NCBI GenBank assembly: GCA_027493955.1
Contig: JAOSJT010000001.1
Span: 4,138,552-4,202,551, forward strand
Source of the DNA: Bacteroidia bacterium
Lineage (GTDB): Bacteria; Bacteroidota; Ignavibacteria; SZUA-365
Length of the DNA: 64,000 nucleotides
Direction: 5' to 3'
The notes below the pieces were generated by a model. The model made no database searches, was not told the DNA's origin, and saw nothing but the letters and a program-made list of their open reading frames with translations. The stretch's first letter is position 1. Each line of letters opens with the position of its first letter. Positions 57,400-63,766 of the stretch are shown in pieces. A program made the position numbers and the translations under genes.

Positions 57400-58371
57400 A
57401 TGCGATTTCTTGCTGCTCTTTTCCTCGCCTGCTGTGCGGTGACGACCGTACACGCGCAGGTGGACACGCTGCAATACGACGGCATCACCAACATCTATGA
57501 CGGGAAGCTTCTGGCCGTCACGCGCTTCCCCGGCGAACTGGACGTGTTCTTCAATACACGTTTCTCCCCCGCTGAAAAATGTACCCTCACCACGGTACTC
57601 GTCGGTTTCAGCGTCGTGAAGTTTCAGGCGCTCACGGGCGAAGATACGCTGGTGGTCAAGGTATTCGAGAACAGCGCGGTTCCGCCGAACCTGGTCAACG
57701 TGGTGAAAACGTACAAGGTCAATCTCGGCGATGCCGGCTTCCCGAGCCCGAACATCCGCTTCAACAATCCGCTCGAAGCGGGAGCGAGGGATGTTCTCGC
57801 CGTCAACCTCAATCCACCCGTCATTTTCTCTCCCCGGCGCGATTTCATCGTTGGGGTGAAGTTGGAGGCGAAACAGAAACTTGCGGTGGGCGACGGTCTG
57901 TGGAATGGCCTCACGATGCTGTTCAATCCCGGCGTCACGGAATTTGATCGCTACCGTCGGTATTTCATCGCACCAAACCCCGCTGCGTCACGGAATACTC
58001 TCGCCACCGAAGCAGCCAATATCGGGCTGTTCATGCGCGCCGTCGTGTCGTACAATCCCAATCTCCCCAACGTCGATCTGACGGACGCCACCGGGGCACC
58101 GCAGCCCGCCGCGTTCGCGCTGCGGCAGAATTATCCGAATCCCTTCAATCCATCCACCGTGCTGGAGTACACACTCTCCTCGCGGCAACACGCGACACTG
58201 ACGGTACATGACGCGCTGGGACGCACGGTGTCCGTGCTCGCAGACGGCATGATGGATGCGGGGACGCACAGCACGCGCTTCGACGCCGACGGTTTGCCTG
58301 CCGGCGTCTATGTGGCGCGTCTCACAGTGAACGGTCAAATGCTCACGAGGTCCATGCTGCTCCTGAAATGA
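57400..58371 (+). CDS. secreted protein with T9SS C-terminal sorting domain (hypothetical)
   Basis: Signal peptide MRFLAALFLACCAVTTVHAQ. C-terminus ..LRQNYPNPFNPSTVLEYTLSSRQHATLTVHDALGRTVSVLADGMMDAGTHSTRFDADGLPAGVYVARLTVNGQ is a textbook T9SS CTD. GGAGGA SD upstream. Confidence 0.75.
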   Translation: MRFLAALFLACCAVTTVHAQVDTLQYDGITNIYDGKLLAVTRFPGELDVFFNTRFSPAEKCTLTTVLVGFSVVKFQALTGEDTLVVKVFENSAVPPNLVNVVKTYKVNLGDAGFPSPNIRFNNPLEAGARDVLAVNLNPPVIFSPRRDFIVGVKLEAKQKLAVGDGLWNGLTMLFNPGVTEFDRYRRYFIAPNPAASRNTLATEAANIGLFMRAVVSYNPNLPNVDLTDATGAPQPAAFALRQNYPNPFNPSTVLEYTLSSRQHATLTVHDALGRTVSVLADGMMDAGTHSTRFDADGLPAGVYVARLTVNGQMLTRSMLLLK

Positions 58372-60269
58372 GACTTTCGGAATCGCAGATCCAGCAGGTT
58401 CGCACAGCCGCCGACATCGTGGACGTTGTCGGCGGCTTCGTGCGTTTACGCAAAACAGGCCGCAATTTCACAGGGCTGTGTCCGTTTCACAAGGAGAAGA
58501 CGCCGTCCTTCAACGTCAATCCCGAGCGACAGATCTACAAATGCTTCGGTTGCGGCAAGGGGGGAGACGTGATCAGCTTCATCATGGATATGGAGCATGT
58601 GTCCTTCATGGACGCGGTGGAAGAACTGGCCGAGCGGTACGGAATAGCGCTGCAACACGATGATGGCATCCGTCCCGAGCGCAAGGAAGATATGGAGGCG
58701 CTGTACGCCGCCACGAGGCTCGCCGCGCGCTTTTTCTTCGACAGTCTCAGAGGGGCCTCCGGCGAGGCGGGACGGGAGTACTTCCGGCGTCGCGGATGGT
58801 CGGAAGAAACCATGAAAACCTTCGGCCTCGGTTACGCGCCGGCGGGCTGGAGCAATTTTCTCGACCACGCCCGCGCCGAAGGAATCGACGAGCACATTCT
58901 CGACCTCGCGGGCCTGATCAAGCTGCGCGAGGGCGGCGGGGCCTATGATCGTTTCAGGAATCGCGTCATTTTTCCCATCATTCACGTCACGCGCAAGGTG
59001 CTGGGTTTCGGCGCCAGGGCGCTGTCGCCCGAAGACGAGCCGAAATATCTGAACTCGCCCGAGTCCGCGATTTACAACAAGAGCAAGGTTCTGTACGGAC
59101 TTGCGCAGGCCTCCAACGCCATACGCGAGGCCGAGTCCATTATTGTGGTCGAGGGGTATGCCGACGTGCTGTCGCTGCATCAGGCCGGGATACGCAACGT
59201 GGTATCCACCAGCGGCACGGCCATGACGCCTGATCAGGTGCACGCCATCAGCCGCTACACGCGCAATATTTTCTTTCTCTACGACGCCGACTCCGCCGGG
59301 CTCCGCGCCATGCTGCGCGGCATAGACGTGATACTCGCCGAGGATTGCGACGCGCGCATCGTACAGCTTGCCGCGGGCGAGGATCCGGATTCCTTTGTCA
59401 TGAAATACGGCGTCGAAGCCGTGCGCGAACGCATGGAGCAGGCGGTGTCCTTCGTGGACTTCGTTACCGCGCAACTGCGGGCCGACGGCAAGCTCGACTC
59501 GCCCGAGGGACGCGCACAGGCCGTGCATCAAATCGTGGGCATGCTTTCGAAAATGGACGACGCGCTGCGCAGAGAGTTCTACATTCACCACATCGCGCAG
59601 ACCTACGGCATTTACGAGAATCTGCTGTACCAGGAACTGGCGAAGGTGATGAAGGGGGCGAAGCGCCGCGAGCGCGCCGCCGTCATCGAAGAACACGCAC
59701 CCCCTCCCGCCGACGCTGCCTCCGAAAGCGTGCCGAAGGAGGAGTTCGCGTTCTGCTCGCATCTCTTGCAGGCGCCGCCGGAAATTCAGGCCGAGGCCCT
59801 GCACTCTGTGCGTATCGGGCATTTTCGCAGCGCGCGCATCCGCGACCTGCTGCACATTCTGTTCGAGCAGGAAGAGCACGACGGCGCGGTGGACAGCAAC
59901 GCGCTGTGGAATTACGTGCAGGACGATGCCGGTATGCACACCCTGCTCGCCGACCTGCTGATGCCGAGGGATGAAGTCAGTAGCGGCTGGAGCAGAAGGC
60001 AGAATGTCAATCCCAAGGACCATCGCCGGGTATTGCGCGATTACTACAAAGAGGTGCTGGAGGCGCGCGTCGGGGAACAACTCTCGCGCCTGCAGGAGAG
60101 GCAAAAACAGGCATCGGGTCCAGACGAGGAGAACGAGCTTGCGCGACGTATCATCGCGTTGCAGAAGGCCGTATCGAGCCTGAACGGAGTCTCGCTGATA
60201 GCGAATTTTCCCGATATCGAAGGGGAGGATGAAATGAGCGATGGTACGGAGACGAGTTTCGGGTTTTGA
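58368..60269 (+). CDS. dnaG: DNA primase
   Basis: Zinc-binding CPFHKEKTPSF...CFGCGKGGDV and TOPRIM block IIVVEGYADVLSL. ATGA overlap with the upstream stop. Confidence 0.9.
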   Translation: MRLSESQIQQVRTAADIVDVVGGFVRLRKTGRNFTGLCPFHKEKTPSFNVNPERQIYKCFGCGKGGDVISFIMDMEHVSFMDAVEELAERYGIALQHDDGIRPERKEDMEALYAATRLAARFFFDSLRGASGEAGREYFRRRGWSEETMKTFGLGYAPAGWSNFLDHARAEGIDEHILDLAGLIKLREGGGAYDRFRNRVIFPIIHVTRKVLGFGARALSPEDEPKYLNSPESAIYNKSKVLYGLAQASNAIREAESIIVVEGYADVLSLHQAGIRNVVSTSGTAMTPDQVHAISRYTRNIFFLYDADSAGLRAMLRGIDVILAEDCDARIVQLAAGEDPDSFVMKYGVEAVRERMEQAVSFVDFVTAQLRADGKLDSPEGRAQAVHQIVGMLSKMDDALRREFYIHHIAQTYGIYENLLYQELAKVMKGAKRRERAAVIEEHAPPPADAASESVPKEEFAFCSHLLQAPPEIQAEALHSVRIGHFRSARIRDLLHILFEQEEHDGAVDSNALWNYVQDDAGMHTLLADLLMPRDEVSSGWSRRQNVNPKDHRRVLRDYYKEVLEARVGEQLSRLQERQKQASGPDEENELARRIIALQKAVSSLNGVSLIANFPDIEGEDEMSDGTETSFGF

Positions 60270-60271
60270 TA

Positions 60272-60512
60272 AGACGCAGGGGAGATTTTAACGCAGCCCT
60301 TCGACTTCGCTCAGGGGCCGGCGCAGGGACGCAGAGGAGGGGAATGTAACGCAGCCCTTCGACTTCGCTCAAGGGCCGGCACAGGGACGCAGAGGAGGGG
60401 AATGTAACGCAGCCCTTCGACTTCGCTCAGGGGCCGGCGAAGGGACGCAGAGGAGGGGAATGTAACGCAGCCCTTCGACTTCGCTAAGGGGCCGGCGAAG
60501 AGACGCAGAGGA
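60272..60512. repeat. 58-bp tandem repeat x4 immediately 3' of dnaG
   Basis: Unit taacgcagcccttcgacttcgctcaggggccggcgcagggacgcagaggaggggaatg starts at 60289, 60347, 60405 and 60463 with a few substitutions per copy. No spacers. Confidence 0.85.
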
Positions 60513-60883
60513 ATTTTTTAGGACTTCGAGCTGCCCCATCTCCATTTCACTCTGTGCCCTCCGCGCCCTCAGCGATCTCTGCGATAGAAGGGGCCCCGTA
60601 CAATCTGACCCCCGCTGAGATAACGCATGTCCTCGTTGAGGCTCATCGCCGGGGGCATCGAGGTTAAGCCATCTTAATTAGGATGTCACAGGTATGAAAA
60701 GCGGTTTACGCTTGATTATAAGAGAATTAACCCGTACTATGGCCTGAGAAATCTGAAGCCTGTCTCGATTTATCAGCAGCAACAGTACGGCAACCGCGTG
60801 GGAAGCGCGGAGTACCGTAGCGGATACCAGCGTGAGTTCGGAGAAGTGATGATAGAGGACCCGGACGTTGTAAGGAGTTTCGG

Positions 60884-61879
60884 ATGGAGAAGTTACGAAT
60901 AAAAAAATGTCAATGGAATGAGGGGCATACACGCTTGTTCCCTCGCTGGTTATTGGGGTGCTTGGTTGCTCTTGCAATATTGTTCAGATGGCAGGAATGT
61001 ACAGCGCAGCTACCGATATATTTCAGCGACCAGGAATGCGGAATAGTTGAATATGCCGACGTTCTGATTAAACCACCGTTGTCGACGTTTATGCCGTTAA
61101 ATGTAATGTACTCCTATATAGTGCTTGACAGCATTTGCAAGGTGGGGACCTTACAGGAAGTGCAGTCGAGACTGAACCTCATGTCAAACGACTCGATTCG
61201 GCTTGCGATGCGGTATTACTACGACGTTCTCGACTACGATCCTATTCTCTTCCACAAATATGCGCTGGCTACGATAGGAGATCCCAACTATACATGCAGT
61301 GTACCCGCGTTCATCAGTACACTATTTGATTTGTACGAAAAATCAGCAAATGCCGGACCGAAGGATAACTTGTTGATCTGGACCTCATATATCTATCATA
61401 TACGCGTACGCTCCCAAATTGCGCGAGAGGATAGTAATAAACATACCAAAATGCGAAAATTCTGTGCCAGAGCGGACGTTCTGAACAAAATAAAAGGAAC
61501 GGTGCTGCCTGATCCAAGTCGTATGGAGGATGGAGGAACTGAGCAGATCACTCTCTGGTGGGGAAGAGAGGTCCCAAGCTGGAACAATGGAATATACATC
61601 GTAGACAGTACTGCATATTACAATGCTCGCGAGGGATTCCTACTTCCGGAACGAGAATATATCGTCTTCGTGTTGGCTGAACCAACATATTTGGAAGGTA
61701 CTGTAAATTCGCAAGGGTACTTACTGAGCGGAACTTATGATTCCAATGAATTGGGAACATGGGTTCTGCCGGTTGTTAATGGGATGGTTATTGACGAATT
61801 TGGATATTTTGGCCTAGGGACAGAAATTGAAATGCAGACCTTCAAAGAGTTTGTAAGGTCATGGAGAGAGCACATTTGA
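60884..61879 (+). CDS. hypothetical secreted protein (no recognisable family), low-GC islet gene 1
   Basis: 331-aa ORF with signal-like N-terminus (..RLFPRWLLGCLVALAILFRWQECTAQ). AT-rich codon usage unlike the rest of the window. Confidence 0.5.
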   Translation: MEKLRIKKCQWNEGHTRLFPRWLLGCLVALAILFRWQECTAQLPIYFSDQECGIVEYADVLIKPPLSTFMPLNVMYSYIVLDSICKVGTLQEVQSRLNLMSNDSIRLAMRYYYDVLDYDPILFHKYALATIGDPNYTCSVPAFISTLFDLYEKSANAGPKDNLLIWTSYIYHIRVRSQIAREDSNKHTKMRKFCARADVLNKIKGTVLPDPSRMEDGGTEQITLWWGREVPSWNNGIYIVDSTAYYNAREGFLLPEREYIVFVLAEPTYLEGTVNSQGYLLSGTYDSNELGTWVLPVVNGMVIDEFGYFGLGTEIEMQTFKEFVRSWREHI

Positions 61880-61925
61880 TGATAATTTCGGTCGCTTGTT
61901 AAAGACATTACCCAACAGAATAAAT

Positions 61926-62132
61926 ATGAAGATACTATTGCTCCTGTTATTTGCACTAGCCAATTGCACACTGATGGAAGTTCACGCGCAGGACGGCTGG
62001 GATTGCTACGGTAAGCATTTTGTTTACTTCAAAAAGACTGGAAATGGAATTGTAGCAAAGTGCTCTTCCAGAGAGACGCCCAATCCAGCCGAGGTGACGC
62101 TTGGAATGCCATTTAGAACCATCTTTGGTTGA
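61926..62132 (+). CDS. small secreted cysteine-containing peptide (hypothetical), islet gene 2
   Basis: Signal peptide MKILLLLLFALANCTLMEVHAQ, then a ~47-aa mature peptide with 3 Cys (DGWDCYGKHFVYFKKTGNGIVAKCSS...). The track ORF starts further upstream at 61896. Confidence 0.4.
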   Translation: MKILLLLLFALANCTLMEVHAQDGWDCYGKHFVYFKKTGNGIVAKCSSRETPNPAEVTLGMPFRTIFG

Positions 62133-62220
62133 AGAGAATAGAGTTGATTGTGAAATATTGTTATTCGAATTTGGAAGTGTCGTAGATTCACGGTTGATCC
62201 AGTTTGTAGCGAGTAGCACC

Positions 62221-63018
62221 ATGAAGAAAACATGTGTCAATCTGTTGTTGGTTCTGGTATTACTTTCCGGCTTGGTCTTTGACGTCGTCGCGCAGGGCGA
62301 TGAGTTTGTCAATTACAAGCGCGCATTCGCGACACGTACAACACTGAAGCAGTCGATAGCGCAGCTCAAATCGCGGGATGGAGAGCGCTTTCATGATGTC
62401 GAGAGAGCGAACTCGTTGGTATTCGCCAAAATCACCCAGGCGGTACGCCCTCTGTCGGACGAAACAAGAGCTGCATTGTCGCTTACGAAGAGCATATACG
62501 GTATGGAGAACTTGCTCGACGTGTCGCGCAACGAAGTGGAGGTCGCCTATGGAGATGCAACACTCTGGATGGCGGTCCTCCGTATCAAAAAGCCGATGAT
62601 GCTCAGAGAGACGCAGCCGGATCGAGGCGTCTACCTCATGCTCAGACCGATAGGAAGGAGAGGGGATACACCGATTTTCGTCATCGAATTTTATTGCACT
62701 ATTGAAAATGTGGGTCTACAGCGCGTGTTGCAGGATGCGGTAGAATGCGCTACGAAACTGAACGACTTCACGGAAAGCGAGGATATCATAGAGGAGATCG
62801 GCAGGCATTGGTCTCATACGGGAGATTGGAACGAAGAAAAACACACCGTGGCCCTTTCGTACATCCGGGGTCTTGCCTGCTGGGACATGGGCGACCACGA
62901 GCGCGCGGAGAAGTATCTTGAAGCGGCGGAGCGATACATCAATTCCCGGCCCGATGATGTTCTCTCCTCCGCGATGACCGTCGGACTGGAAACAATGGGC
63001 AGGACGGCACGGAAGTAG
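62221..63018 (+). CDS. hypothetical secreted protein, islet gene 3
   Basis: Signal peptide MKKTCVNLLLVLVLLSGLVFDVVAQ (the track ORF begins at 62101). 265 aa, no recognisable motifs. Confidence 0.5.
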   Translation: MKKTCVNLLLVLVLLSGLVFDVVAQGDEFVNYKRAFATRTTLKQSIAQLKSRDGERFHDVERANSLVFAKITQAVRPLSDETRAALSLTKSIYGMENLLDVSRNEVEVAYGDATLWMAVLRIKKPMMLRETQPDRGVYLMLRPIGRRGDTPIFVIEFYCTIENVGLQRVLQDAVECATKLNDFTESEDIIEEIGRHWSHTGDWNEEKHTVALSYIRGLACWDMGDHERAEKYLEAAERYINSRPDDVLSSAMTVGLETMGRTARK

Positions 63019-63146
63019 AAGCCGCGCCCGCTCATCCAGGTCCCCAGCCATCACAGAAAATCCTCGTTGATGTTTATCGCCGAGGGCACAGACCCGCTAT
63101 CCGTGCTTTGATCCGGAAAAATGTCTCTTGATTCGCCCTTCATATT

Positions 63147-63371
63147 TCATAAATCCCTCGACCGGCTTTCCCGCACTGCGTTCACAATTTCATCCATGGA
63201 GAGATCGAGGTCCACGCCTTCGATGTCGAAAGGCGACTCGCTCTCCGTCACAGGGATGAGCAGGAATACCTGTCCGTCCCGCCTGCGGATACGTACCCGC
63301 CCTTCCTTTCTTGCGCGGTCCAGTAATTCGGCCAGGTTCTGTCGGGCCTCGGAATAGGTGTATGTTGTCAT
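63147..63371 (-). CDS. Phd/YefM-family type II antitoxin
   Basis: MTTYTYSEARQNLAELLDRARKEGRVRIRRRDGQVFLLIPV is a typical Phd/YefM N-terminal fold signature. 74 aa. Confidence 0.75.
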   Translation of the reverse strand: MTTYTYSEARQNLAELLDRARKEGRVRIRRRDGQVFLLIPVTESESPFDIEGVDLDLSMDEIVNAVRESRSRDL

Positions 63372-63766
63372 GGCAGCAACTCCAGAATTGGGATTCCTAA
63401 TTTCCTCGCCACTAATGATAGAGGTTCGTCAAGCGTAAGAAGTGGGGCATGCCAGGCTGTGGCAGCAGCAAGGACGTACGCGTCGGAAGCATACATTCCG
63501 TTTGCGGATGCGATGTTCAATGACGATTCCAGATCGACGTCGATAAGGCGGATTGGAATTTTCTTAAATTCGTTGACCGCGGCGATGGCGCTGTCGAGCG
63601 ACAAGCGACGTCGTTTCATCATTGCCGAGAACGCGTTGCCGATTTCCCAATGCAGCGATGTTGGGGCGAGCAGCTCAGCGCCCCGTGTCGCCTTCGCAAT
63701 CGCATATTTGTGCGGCTCGTTCGTGACGACGGCGATGACAGCTGATGTATCGACAAGTACTCGCAT
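63368..63766 (-). CDS. PIN-domain toxin (VapC-like)
   Basis: MRVLVDTSAVIAVVTNEP... (acidic D in strand 1), ..YASDAYVLAAATAWHAPLLTLD.. C-terminal PIN motif. 4-nt overlap (ATGA) with the downstream antitoxin gene. The track ORF starts at 63799, but the MRVLVDTS start at 63766 is preferred. Confidence 0.75.
   Translation of the reverse strand: MRVLVDTSAVIAVVTNEPHKYAIAKATRGAELLAPTSLHWEIGNAFSAMMKRRRLSLDSAIAAVNEFKKIPIRLIDVDLESSLNIASANGMYASDAYVLAAATAWHAPLLTLDEPLSLVARKLGIPILELLP

Follow-up and report, generated by a model that had tools for sequence, protein, structure and literature searches.

A low-GC islet downstream of dnaG is probably the deletion-scarred remnant of a larger accessory island

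The 2.4 kb enclosed by two imperfect direct repeats in the DNA analysed here (a 64-kb stretch of a contig from the metagenome-assembled genome of an uncultured Bacteroidota-type bacterium, labelled Bacteroidia bacterium at NCBI; hereafter the window) are probably what deletions have left of a larger accessory island that occupied a variable hot spot between dnaG and a Pterin_4a gene. The island joints lie within ~28 nt at the 3′ end of a palindromic intergenic element (element E). Two internal deletions have reshaped the copy in the window: one fused the first ~24 codons of gene A, the head gene of the island, in frame to g1, and the other cut a metzincin gene after codon 64, giving rise to the g2 reading frame and joining it to the g3 region (Table 1). 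Expression of g1 and g3 probably persists, from a promoter in the island leader and with export by Sec (historical dN/dS about 0.1 for g1 and about 0.3 for g3).

Results

Composition, gene content and surroundings of the islet

The islet stands out from its host in base composition. Measured in 300-nt windows, GC is 0.57–0.66 across pyrG, a T9SS gene and dnaG (55.6–60.5 kb) and about 0.60 on the host side of the islet, falls to 0.41–0.46 at 60.85–62.35 kb and is back to 0.51–0.59 over g3 and rightwards. The GC3 values (0.74–0.77 in host genes, 0.48 in g1, 0.49 in g2 and 0.64 in g3) place g1 and g2 strongly and g3 moderately on the AT side of the host level. The drop in GC and GC3 bears out the AT-rich islet of ~2.4 kb described by the original prediction. 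Its three co-directional genes for secreted proteins were recovered as well: all are intact and on the + strand, the gaps between them are 46 and 88 nt, and no + strand terminator was found between g1, g2 and g3. All three have a Sec-type signal peptide; each N-terminus, as read from the sequence, carries a hydrophobic stretch closing in ..AQ. The ..AQ cleavage-type motif is of the same type as that of the neighbouring T9SS protein.

The 58-bp array reported downstream of dnaG is present (Table 1). It occurs in five copies in the closest relative (L092) and is part of the chromosomal context, not islet cargo. The neighbouring toxin–antitoxin module was likewise confirmed, with both domains scoring above their Pfam cut-offs and the genes overlapping by 4 nt as a type II pair. 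The antitoxin gene is present in L092 and only as a 3′ remnant in the more distant relative L010; the PIN toxin gene is missing from L092. An Rfam scan of 59.5–64 kb gave no family apart from one chance lncRNA match. No tRNA was found near the islet, whose target is not a tRNA, and tblastn searches of plasmid and phage collections with g1 and g3 gave no match.

Table 1. Coordinates of the islet and adjoining features in the window
Feature	Position	Strand	Description
58-bp tandem array	60289-60512		3.9 copies, 95% matches, directly past the dnaG stop
Palindromic intergenic element E	60549-60662		Terminal inverted repeats CTCTGTGCCCTCCGCG (60549-60565) and CGCCGGGGGCATCGAG (60647-60662)
Left direct repeat (attL-like)	60630-60657		TCCTCGTTGAGGCTCATCGCCGGGGGCA
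Island leader (5′ untranslated/regulatory)	60663-60883	+	Ends in AAGGAGTTTCGGATGGAGA
g1	60884-61879	+	331 aa, chimeric, Sec signal peptide
g2	61926-62132	+	68 aa, gene remnant: signal peptide and first 42 mature residues of a T9SS metzincin
g3	62221-63018	+	265 aa, Sec signal peptide
Right direct repeat (attR-like)	63061-63088		TCCTCGTTGATGTTTATCGCCGAGGGCA
Phd/YefM-type antitoxin gene	63147-63371	-	PF02604 (PhdYeFM), 40 bits (cut-off 29.8), E 3.4e-10
PIN-domain (VapC-like) toxin gene	63368-63766	-	PF01850, 32 bits (cut-off 23.6), E 2.1e-7

Direct repeats and the palindromic element

The two repeats are identical at 24 of 28 positions (24 of 30 on the coordinates first given for them), in agreement with the imperfect direct repeats that had been proposed to flank the islet. 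The best 28-mer match in 200 first-order Markov simulations reached no more than 22 across the region and no more than 21 between the two 300-nt flanks. Because 24/28 was never reached, we judged the repeat to be non-random. The left copy sits within the 3′ part of element E, and the right copy holds the better version of the element's right inverted repeat (63078-63092). The two copies share an open frame, and we considered whether the repeat forms the terminal part of a small coding sequence; this was rejected because L001, a locus in another chromosomal context, has a stop in that frame and L092 has indels there.

Element E is about 115–185 nt long with terminal inverted repeats of ~16 nt. 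Its length varies by tandem duplication (L010), it adjoins the tandem hairpin array, and its folding z-scores are modest (-1.5 and -1.7). Homologues were found in L010/L095, in L092 and, in another chromosomal context, in L001; the window holds no further copy within its 64 kb. Neither the repeat pattern TCCTCGTTGAN{5,6}ATCGCCGNGGGCA nor a pattern for the 5′ portion of the element had a single match in whole-collection scans of the JGI metagenomes. Outside the window the repeat was found in L010/L095, L092 and L001, and to date the element has been seen in just a few close lineages. It resembles REP/BIME-type and MITE-like elements in being intergenic, in having terminal inverted repeats and internal hairpins, and in occurring in at least two contexts with an island at the same internal point. 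It differs from them in its handful of copies and in that no RAYT or transposase is associated with it.

Empty and differently occupied sites in relatives

dnaG is followed within about 45–400 nt by Pterin_4a in L011, L012, L014, L016, L017 and L093/L094, and the adjacency seen in the seven outgroup loci is, judged by gene order, the ancestral arrangement. Neither these loci nor L010/L095 carry the islet genes at the dnaG position. L010 and L095 represent one relative (DnaG 78%) in which dnaG is followed by element E, a single copy of the repeat and then a homologue of window positions 63058-63176. This empty site aligns with the window to the left of the left repeat and not to the right of it; rightwards from the right repeat, the window aligns with the L010 empty site, with L092 and with L091. 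The single copy is a hybrid, with an attL-like left flank, whereas the 3′ part of the repeat and the right flank are attR-like.

The closest relative, L092 (DnaG 92%), is continuous with window positions 58000-60889 and resumes at 63067-63373. Between the same ends it holds a different island of 6.3 kb, with gene A (340 aa), a gene for a 366-aa protein and a T9SS gene for 1070 aa. The comparison of relatives that the original prediction had suggested shows an empty site in L010/L095 and other cargo in L092. In L001 the repeat, the leader and gene A stand behind a glyoxalase gene; L001 has no host genes in common with the window, and a second repeat copy was not found within the 10 kb that are readable there. 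We take the repeats as the islet boundary because L010/L095 is empty, L092 has the same ends around different cargo, and dnaG adjoins Pterin_4a in the outgroups. In these sequences, an insertion in the common ancestor of the window and L092 would look the same as an exact excision from L010 through recombination of one repeat with the other. The interval from dnaG to Pterin_4a cleanly illustrates a hot spot between core genes that gained a toxin–antitoxin module, repeat elements and exchangeable secreted cargo in succession.

The same synteny series contradicts a reading in which g1 to g3 are native, vertically inherited genes, with a low GC owed to their protein class and a repeat that is coincidental or belongs to a local repeat family. 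A gene-class bias is conceivable, since T9SS and secreted genes near g1 relatives are repeatedly low-GC in several lineages (the homologous cassettes in L001, L004, L096 and L097 are as low in GC as the islet, in hosts of 57–58% GC), and the repeat does lie inside a repetitive palindromic element. Against this, the genes are absent at this position from the seven outgroup loci and from L010/L095, homology to the empty site stops right at the repeat, the simulations never produced a 24/28 match, and g1 relatives sit in unrelated chromosomal contexts. We consider native inheritance very improbable.

Movement of the island

Integrase, transposase or other recombinase genes were found neither in the islet nor in the L092 island nor in the readable part of the L001 island, and g1, g2 and g3 matched no recombinase family in Pfam, NCBIfam, PHROGs or PADLOC. 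For this reason the mechanism of movement is one that we infer: recombination at the repeat, driven by homology or by an enzyme acting in trans, may have brought the island in or exchanged it.

Alternatively, the locus might descend from an autonomous or mobilisable integrative element. Its ~28-nt repeats would be attL and attR, produced when site-specific recombination targeted a repeated palindrome, and its recombinase would be encoded at an unlinked locus or by gene A, of which 24 codons remain here; the window copy would be an immobilised relic. Such an element would account for repeats that fall exactly at the boundary, for an empty site with one hybrid copy, for the recurrence of the same repeat, leader and gene A head behind another gene in L001, for the constant position of gene A as first gene in L092, L001, L005 and L004, and for the atypical composition. 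However, gene A resembles no recombinase family and no solved structure, the gene A islands of L004 and L005 lack both the repeat and element E, the repeats are degenerate (24/28 in the window and worse in L092), and the readable L001 sequence has no right-hand copy. On balance we think this origin unlikely.

Compared with genomic islands bounded by att-like repeats, the accessory remnant that we favour shares the atypical GC, the insertion between conserved core genes (dnaG and Pterin_4a), imperfect end repeats, an unoccupied site with one copy of the repeat, alternative cargo and an adjacent toxin–antitoxin module. It differs in lacking an integrase or transposase gene in cis and in having a palindromic intergenic repeat, not a tRNA, as its target; it is also very small and internally deleted.

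Island leader and the chimeric g1 gene

Identity of the leader is 85% to its L092 counterpart and about 75% to that of L001; in both loci gene A follows. A consensus fold of the three leader sequences had no net covariation support. Gene A is predicted to encode a cytoplasmic protein to which homology assigns no function. Fuller versions of the island consist of the leader, gene A and then low-GC genes for exported proteins, among them a g1-family gene immediately followed by the gene for a metzincin protease with a T9SS sorting domain.

In the window, positions 60711-60897 match the L001 leader and the start of gene A, and the match to the body of g1 starts at 60962; a weaker similarity to the 5′ end of gene A reaches to about 60950 in a global alignment. 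The start of gene A is the source of g1 codons 1 to about 24 (60884 to about 60955), which continue in frame into a g1-family protein at the hydrophobic core of its signal peptide; the extra N-terminal segment is visible in the protein alignment. The omega (dN/dS) of g1 is 0.10, compared with 0.11 for dnaG.

The g1 family comprises 316 representatives at E<=1e-3, Sec-exported proteins of about 320 aa. The consensus signal peptide ends in ..AQ, lacks a lipobox and is followed by about 290 mature residues; a T9SS tail was present in 3/83 members. The family has no match in Pfam, and a profile search of the PDB gave only chance matches (E>0.5). An AlphaFold2 model of g1, computed from a shallow alignment, had a pLDDT of 35 and was unusable. 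g1 itself matched no family in Pfam, NCBIfam, PHROGs or PADLOC.

g2 as the stump of a metzincin gene

The relatives of g2 are metzincins of 369–372 aa, and g2 aligns to their N-terminus only. Residues 1–64 are 80% identical to the N-terminus of the 372-aa protein encoded at L001 8991-10109. At the nucleotide level, window positions 60962-62118 correspond to L001 8028-9183 with 84.5% identity, and this correspondence ends about 13 nt before the g2 stop. From about 62119 onwards the homology to the full-length gene is lost; the last 4 codons and the stop of g2 are unrelated junction sequence.

The parent proteins (L001 8991-10109, L096 4969-6078 and L097 5965-7200) resemble the T9SS metzincin cargo proteases of Bacteroidota in carrying HExxHxxGxxH, Peptidase_M10 and Por_Secre_tail. 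The L001 protein matches Peptidase_M10 (1.7e-6) and Por_Secre_tail (9e-11) and contains HEIGHLLGLGH; its L096 counterpart also has Por_Secre_tail (5e-8). Karilysin of the KLIKK set is a known M10-type metzincin. The parent of g2 had no relative among PDB sequences at E<=0.01. HExxHxxGxxH lies at residues 225–257 of the full-length relatives, whereas g2 ends at residue 68. Unlike these proteases, g2 has no catalytic domain and no sorting domain, and it matched no family in Pfam, NCBIfam, PHROGs or PADLOC.

g2 had been described as a 3-Cys mature peptide with a signal peptide. The signal peptide holds up; the third cysteine lies within it, leaving two in the mature part, both of which are kept in the parent protein. 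g2 is probably a pseudogene stump. Against this, the reading frame is intact, the signal peptide is good and dN/dS against the full-length gene is 0.18, and a short secreted pro-fragment may be expressed.

g3, a secreted protein of narrow distribution

Only two other clusters of g3 homologues are known (88% and 57% identity), and omega is 0.29–0.33. The AlphaFold2 model, again from a shallow alignment, has an overall pLDDT of 48, with 54–66 at residues 161–200 and 79–90 at 201–260. It predicts TPR-like helices for the C-terminal ~100 residues and, at low confidence, a beta-rich N-terminal part. One TPR_8 repeat at residues 214–236 scored 19.9 bits, below the cut-off of 25.7, and Foldseek searches of the PDB with the model gave no match at E<=0.001 and TPR-like matches only at E>0.1. 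The suggestion that the three proteins carry no recognisable motif agrees with the empty family scans for g1 and g2; g3 has these sub-threshold TPR/helical matches. Similarity of g3 to CARF_HEPN (PADLOC, E 7.9e-6) and Csm6_6H (Pfam, E 0.085) was dismissed as helical/TPR-like, because g3 carries a signal peptide for Sec, the similarity is limited to about 80 helical residues and R..H in that stretch is not kept in the 57% homologue.

Outside this strain g3 is linked to g1 nowhere. In L090 it lies in another context, on a 2-kb contig with neither g1 nor g2, and in L091 it is preceded only by a 3-codon stump of gene A. Conversely, L001, L004, L005, L096 and L097 have g1 relatives and no g3. The g1-g2-g3 trio is confined to identical contigs from this one strain (L007-L009).

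This distribution bears on the horizontally acquired peptide-effector cargo proposed by the original prediction. In its full form that proposal is a functional, bacteriocin-like system of three secreted proteins acquired as a unit, with g2 as the active disulfide peptide and g1 and g3 as accessory or immunity proteins. Intact co-directional reading frames with short gaps and no + strand terminator between them, Sec-type signal peptides on all three, the conservation of both mature g2 cysteines in the parent protein and the foreign composition of the segment would all suit it. The truncation junction in g2 largely refutes it, because g2 fits only metzincin N-termini and loses this homology 13 nt ahead of its stop. 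Moreover, the trio is confined to one strain, g3 occurs without g1 or g2 in L090 and L091, and five loci hold g1 relatives and no g3. Scans of Pfam, NCBIfam, PHROGs and PADLOC turned up no family for bacteriocins, transporters, C39 peptidases or immunity; a stand-alone precursor gene, genes for processing, export and immunity, and co-occurrence were likewise all lacking. We regard such a system as highly unlikely. What survives of the proposal is an accessory, compositionally foreign segment bounded by repeats, in which g2 is a stump, g1 a fusion and g3 an unlinked gene. Recognizing this keeps a truncated protease gene from being mis-annotated as a system for a secreted peptide or bacteriocin.

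Pairing of g1-family and metzincin genes

Overall, the deletion remnant is in our view an ordinary islet decaying in a hot spot, and the pairing of g1-family and metzincin genes is a lead on the side. A T9SS metzincin gene lies directly behind a g1-family gene in L001, L096 (45% identity), L097 (25% identity) and a paralogous pair in L004, with gaps of 2 nt (L097), 38 nt (L096) and 45 nt (L001). Family members in L099, in L005 and in the second L004 copy have no adjacent metzincin. From this gene order, seen across five loci only, g1-family proteins may work together with the metzincin encoded next to them, for instance as its inhibitor, its chaperone or another kind of periplasmic partner. 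g1 in the window would then be an orphaned partner, because the gene for its metzincin has been destroyed.

A parallel exists in Tannerella forsythia, where potempins are described as lipoproteins of 98–132 residues with a lipobox Cys, encoded in operons with KLIKK peptidases (PMC9890683). As in the potempin/KLIKK operons of that account, the g1 relatives in L001, L096, L097 and the L004 pair place a gene for an exported protein immediately upstream of a co-oriented T9SS peptidase gene. The putative g1-family partners would be alike in logic to the potempins described there and are unrelated to them in sequence, size and anchoring: g1 has 331 aa, no lipobox and a signal peptide ending in ..AQ, and shows no detectable sequence similarity to those potempins. 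In the window the peptidase partner is reduced to a stump, and inhibition by g1 is putative.

A bolder and rather doubtful proposal is that the g1 family is an undescribed group of dedicated, Sec-exported partners of a T9SS-metzincin clade, which would move in low-GC cassettes headed by the leader and gene A and insert, with no recognizable integrase, at a palindromic repeat between genes; what the window preserves would be an orphan and a cassette fossil. As a modest lead, environmental Bacteroidota-like bacteria may have in the g1 family a new class of protease inhibitors or partners.

The islet and its flanking repeats

The islet lies at 60.5-63.1 kb, between dnaG and a Phd/YefM-PIN pair (coordinates are listed in the table). 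As originally predicted, the DNA becomes AT-rich after dnaG: in 300-nt windows, GC is 0.57-0.66 across pyrG, a gene for a T9SS-tailed protein and dnaG, falls to 0.41-0.46 at about 60.85-62.35 kb and returns to 0.51-0.59 over g3. GC3 is 0.74-0.77 in host genes, 0.48 in g1, 0.49 in g2 and 0.64 in g3; the shift therefore holds for g1 and g2, g3 being only mildly affected. The three ORFs are co-directional and, as predicted for secreted products, all open with a hydrophobic signal sequence, read from the sequence, that ends in ..AQ like that of the adjacent T9SS protein. The gene for this last protein shares 4 nt with the start of dnaG, and pyrG, the T9SS-tailed gene and dnaG stay together as a block in every relative down to 55% DnaG identity, an unusual and stable coupling of a secreted-protein gene to a primase gene.

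Features of the islet and of related loci (L numbers are comparison loci)
Feature	Position	Strand	Remarks
T9SS-tailed protein gene	window 57400-58371		323 aa
dnaG	window 58368-60269
58-bp tandem array	window 60289-60512; L092 9091-9371		3.9 copies, 95% matches; 5 copies
Array-related motif	L001 12940-13170		GCAGAGG.GGGGAAT.TAACGCAG
Palindromic element	window 60549-60662	.	ends are inverted repeats CTCTGTGCCCTCCGCG and CGCCGGGGGCATCGAG
Direct repeat	window 60630-60657, 63061-63088		left and right copies
Leader	window 60700-60884; L092 9545-9735; L001 6385-6578		core AACGGCAACCGCGTGGGAAGCGCGGAGTACCGTAGCGGATACC, with small hairpins
Gene A	L092 9729-10751; L001 6572-7620; L005 2044-2895; L004 5096-5404; window 60884 to about 60955		340 aa in L092; split (200 + 147 aa) in L001; truncated in L004; 24-codon stump in window
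g1	window 60884-61879	+	331 aa, signal sequence
g2	window 61926-62132	+	68 aa, signal sequence
g3	window 62221-63018	+	265 aa, signal sequence
Phd/PIN module	window 63147-63766; L092 15874-16098; L010 12214-12339	- (window)	intact; PIN missing; Phd C-terminal remnant only
Cassette	L001 8001-12842		metzincin HEIGHLLGLGH
Cassette	L096 3941-9538		g1-family member 45% identical; metzincin HEIGHILGLGH; 131-aa and ~440/529-aa genes kept too
Cassette	L097 3115-7200		g1-family member 25% identical; metzincin HEFGHIFGLHH; 2-nt gap
Cassette	L004 5573-8837		paralogous pair; metzincin HELGHFLGVAH
Insertion	L013 11890-14444		~2.5 kb, includes T9SS-tail-like sequence

The two repeat copies agree at 24 of 28 positions, whereas the best 28-mer match in 200 Markov simulations was 22 region-wide and 21 between the two flanks. 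The match exceeds all simulated maxima, and the imperfect direct repeats that had been noticed are therefore real. The left copy makes up the 3' end of the palindromic element; the right copy better matches the element's left end (15 nt, 93%). The element folds through its ends with modest z-scores (-1.5 and -1.7) and is kept in L092 and in L010, where it has a 42-nt internal tandem duplication. L001 carries a copy of the element's 3' part plus the repeat after a glyoxalase gene; the same leader and head gene come next, and a copy of the element's 5' part lies on the opposite side of the L001 island. Neither a tRNA nor an Rfam family was found at the element or repeat, and family searches of the islet and of the relatives' island genes gave no associated recombinase. 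Two metagenome-wide pattern scans returned no further copies. No relatives of g1 or g3 were found on sequenced plasmids or phages.

Exchange of cargo between dnaG and Pterin_4a

A synteny series was built from DnaG relatives in a one-genome-per-species collection and in metagenome assemblies. In L011, L012, L014, L016, L017 and L093/L094 (DnaG 55-72% identical) a Pterin_4a gene follows about 45-400 nt after dnaG; in the window's strain (contig L007) it is also the next gene after the TA pair. L010/L095 (DnaG 78%) lack g1-g3: after dnaG comes an element of ~180 nt, followed by what is left of the Phd 3' end. Aligned to both window junctions, L010 follows the left flank as far as the repeat and across it, has the repeat in a single copy, and from there onward follows the right flank (63058-63176). 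In the closest relative, L092 (DnaG 92%), homology to the window runs unbroken over 58000-60889, a stretch that takes in dnaG, the adjoining 58-bp array, the palindromic element, the left repeat and 225 nt up to the g1 start codon, and resumes over 63067-63373. The L092 cargo between these flanks differs from the window's (340-aa, 366-aa and 1070-aa HELAH/T9SS genes). The empty site and the different cargo at shared boundaries thus show a hot spot with the repeats as joints and exchangeable cargo. This comparison of related strains, which the original prediction had proposed, supports its view of the islet as horizontally acquired, here as repeat-bounded accessory DNA. Either a gain of the island before the window and L092 diverged or its loss from L010 by recombination of one repeat with the other would explain the pattern. 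Acquisition or exchange probably took place through recombination at the repeat, by way of homology or of an enzyme provided in trans; the islet itself encodes nothing able to do it.

The insertion between dnaG and Pterin_4a in L013 (DnaG 59%) is independent and suggests repeated use of this intergenic site. The Phd/PIN module is decaying within the clade too, and none of the more distant relatives has it: there dnaG abuts Pterin_4a. L010 (CAYJMN010000020.1) is titled 'uncultured Chromatiales bacterium'; its pyrG (91%), T9SS protein (77%) and DnaG (78%) are closest to the Bacteroidota-type window genome, and the bin is probably mislabelled.

Internal deletions

Homologues of g1 fall into three clusters of a word-indexed database (72-85% identity), all in other chromosomal contexts. 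In L001 the order is repeat, leader, gene A (the head gene of fuller islands), g1 homologue (314 aa), then 372-aa, 131-aa and 529-aa proteins; the 372-aa protein matches Peptidase_M10 (1.7e-6) and Por_Secre_tail (9e-11) and contains the metzincin motif HEIGHLLGLGH. Window 60962-62118 corresponds to L001 8028-9183 at 84.5% identity, spanning g1 and the first 64 metzincin codons. This homology breaks off at ~62119, 13 nt short of the g2 stop, so the alignment shows g2 to be a stump: of the metzincin gene only the signal peptide and the N-terminal pro-region are left, and the last four codons of g2 are junction sequence. The proposed peptide effector or bacteriocin-like system is not supported, and the mature peptide has two cysteines, not three. 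At the other end, 60711-60897 matches the L001 leader and gene A start, and weaker similarity to the gene A 5' region continues to about 60950 in a global alignment. The g1 body match begins only at 60962, and an extra N-terminal segment is visible in the protein alignment; by this comparison g1 is an in-frame fusion of about 24 gene A codons to its own signal-peptide core. With these two internal junctions, the alignments show that the islet arose from a larger island by deletion.

Locus L091, which shares the right repeat and whose g3 is 88% identical, lacks g1 and g2 and retains only a 3-codon gene A stump about 180 nt upstream of g3. In L090 a g3 homologue (57%) occupies yet another chromosomal context. 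These are the only two relatives of g3 (dN/dS 0.29-0.33); its TPR matches are sub-threshold and only the C-terminal helices of its predicted model are confident.

No + strand terminator was found between the islet ORFs, which are separated by 46 and 88 nt, and g1 and g3 would still be transcribed from the conserved leader and exported by Sec. The islet is an ordinary, decaying genomic islet.

The g1 family and its metzincin neighbours

An exhaustive profile search placed 316 representative clusters in the g1 family at E<=1e-3 (109 at 1e-10), nearly all of 310-350 aa, with a T9SS tail in 3 of 83 members. The family matched neither Pfam nor, as a profile, solved structures, in keeping with the prediction that g1 has no recognisable motif. 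The dN/dS of g1 against L001 is 0.10, like that of dnaG.

Gene order is informative here: in four loci (L001, L096, L097 and L004) a T9SS-tailed metzincin directly follows the g1-family member; none is adjacent in L099, L005 or the second L004 copy. All cassettes at these loci have 40-45% GC in hosts of 57-58%. Their order (g1-family gene, metzincin/T9SS, ~130-aa secreted protein, ~440-530-aa protein) and low GC are both retained even at 25-47% protein identity, which points to a common pool of mobile low-GC genes; the L096 cassette is broken by a DUF772 transposase fragment. This gene order is reminiscent of the potempin/KLIKK-peptidase operons in Tannerella forsythia, in which a small lipoprotein encoded immediately upstream inhibits a T9SS peptidase (PMC9890683). 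The size and lipobox features that define potempins are lacking in g1, so the likeness is one of analogy rather than membership. Proteins of the g1 family may act with the neighbouring metzincin. The partner protease is gone from the window, so g1 is probably an orphan, either heading for decay or serving some purpose of its own. As a modestly interesting by-product, the analysis brings out an unnamed protein family whose members consistently stand beside T9SS metzincins in low-GC cassettes.

Leader, gene A and the 58-bp array

The leader, a non-coding stretch ahead of the first island gene, is 75-85% identical across islands at two chromosomal locations. It has no Rfam match, and folding three sequences to a consensus brought no net support from covariation. 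A promoter, an operator and a 5' UTR element are possible roles for it. Gene A, a ~340-aa cytoplasmic protein without relatives in Pfam, PHROG or PDB, invariably comes first in the secreted-protein islands of four lineages and could be a regulator or something else. Each unit of the 58-bp array, directly after dnaG, contains a 7-bp hairpin (CCCTTCG...CGAAGGG), and the related motif in L001 adjoins the copy of the palindromic element's 5' part on the far side of the island.
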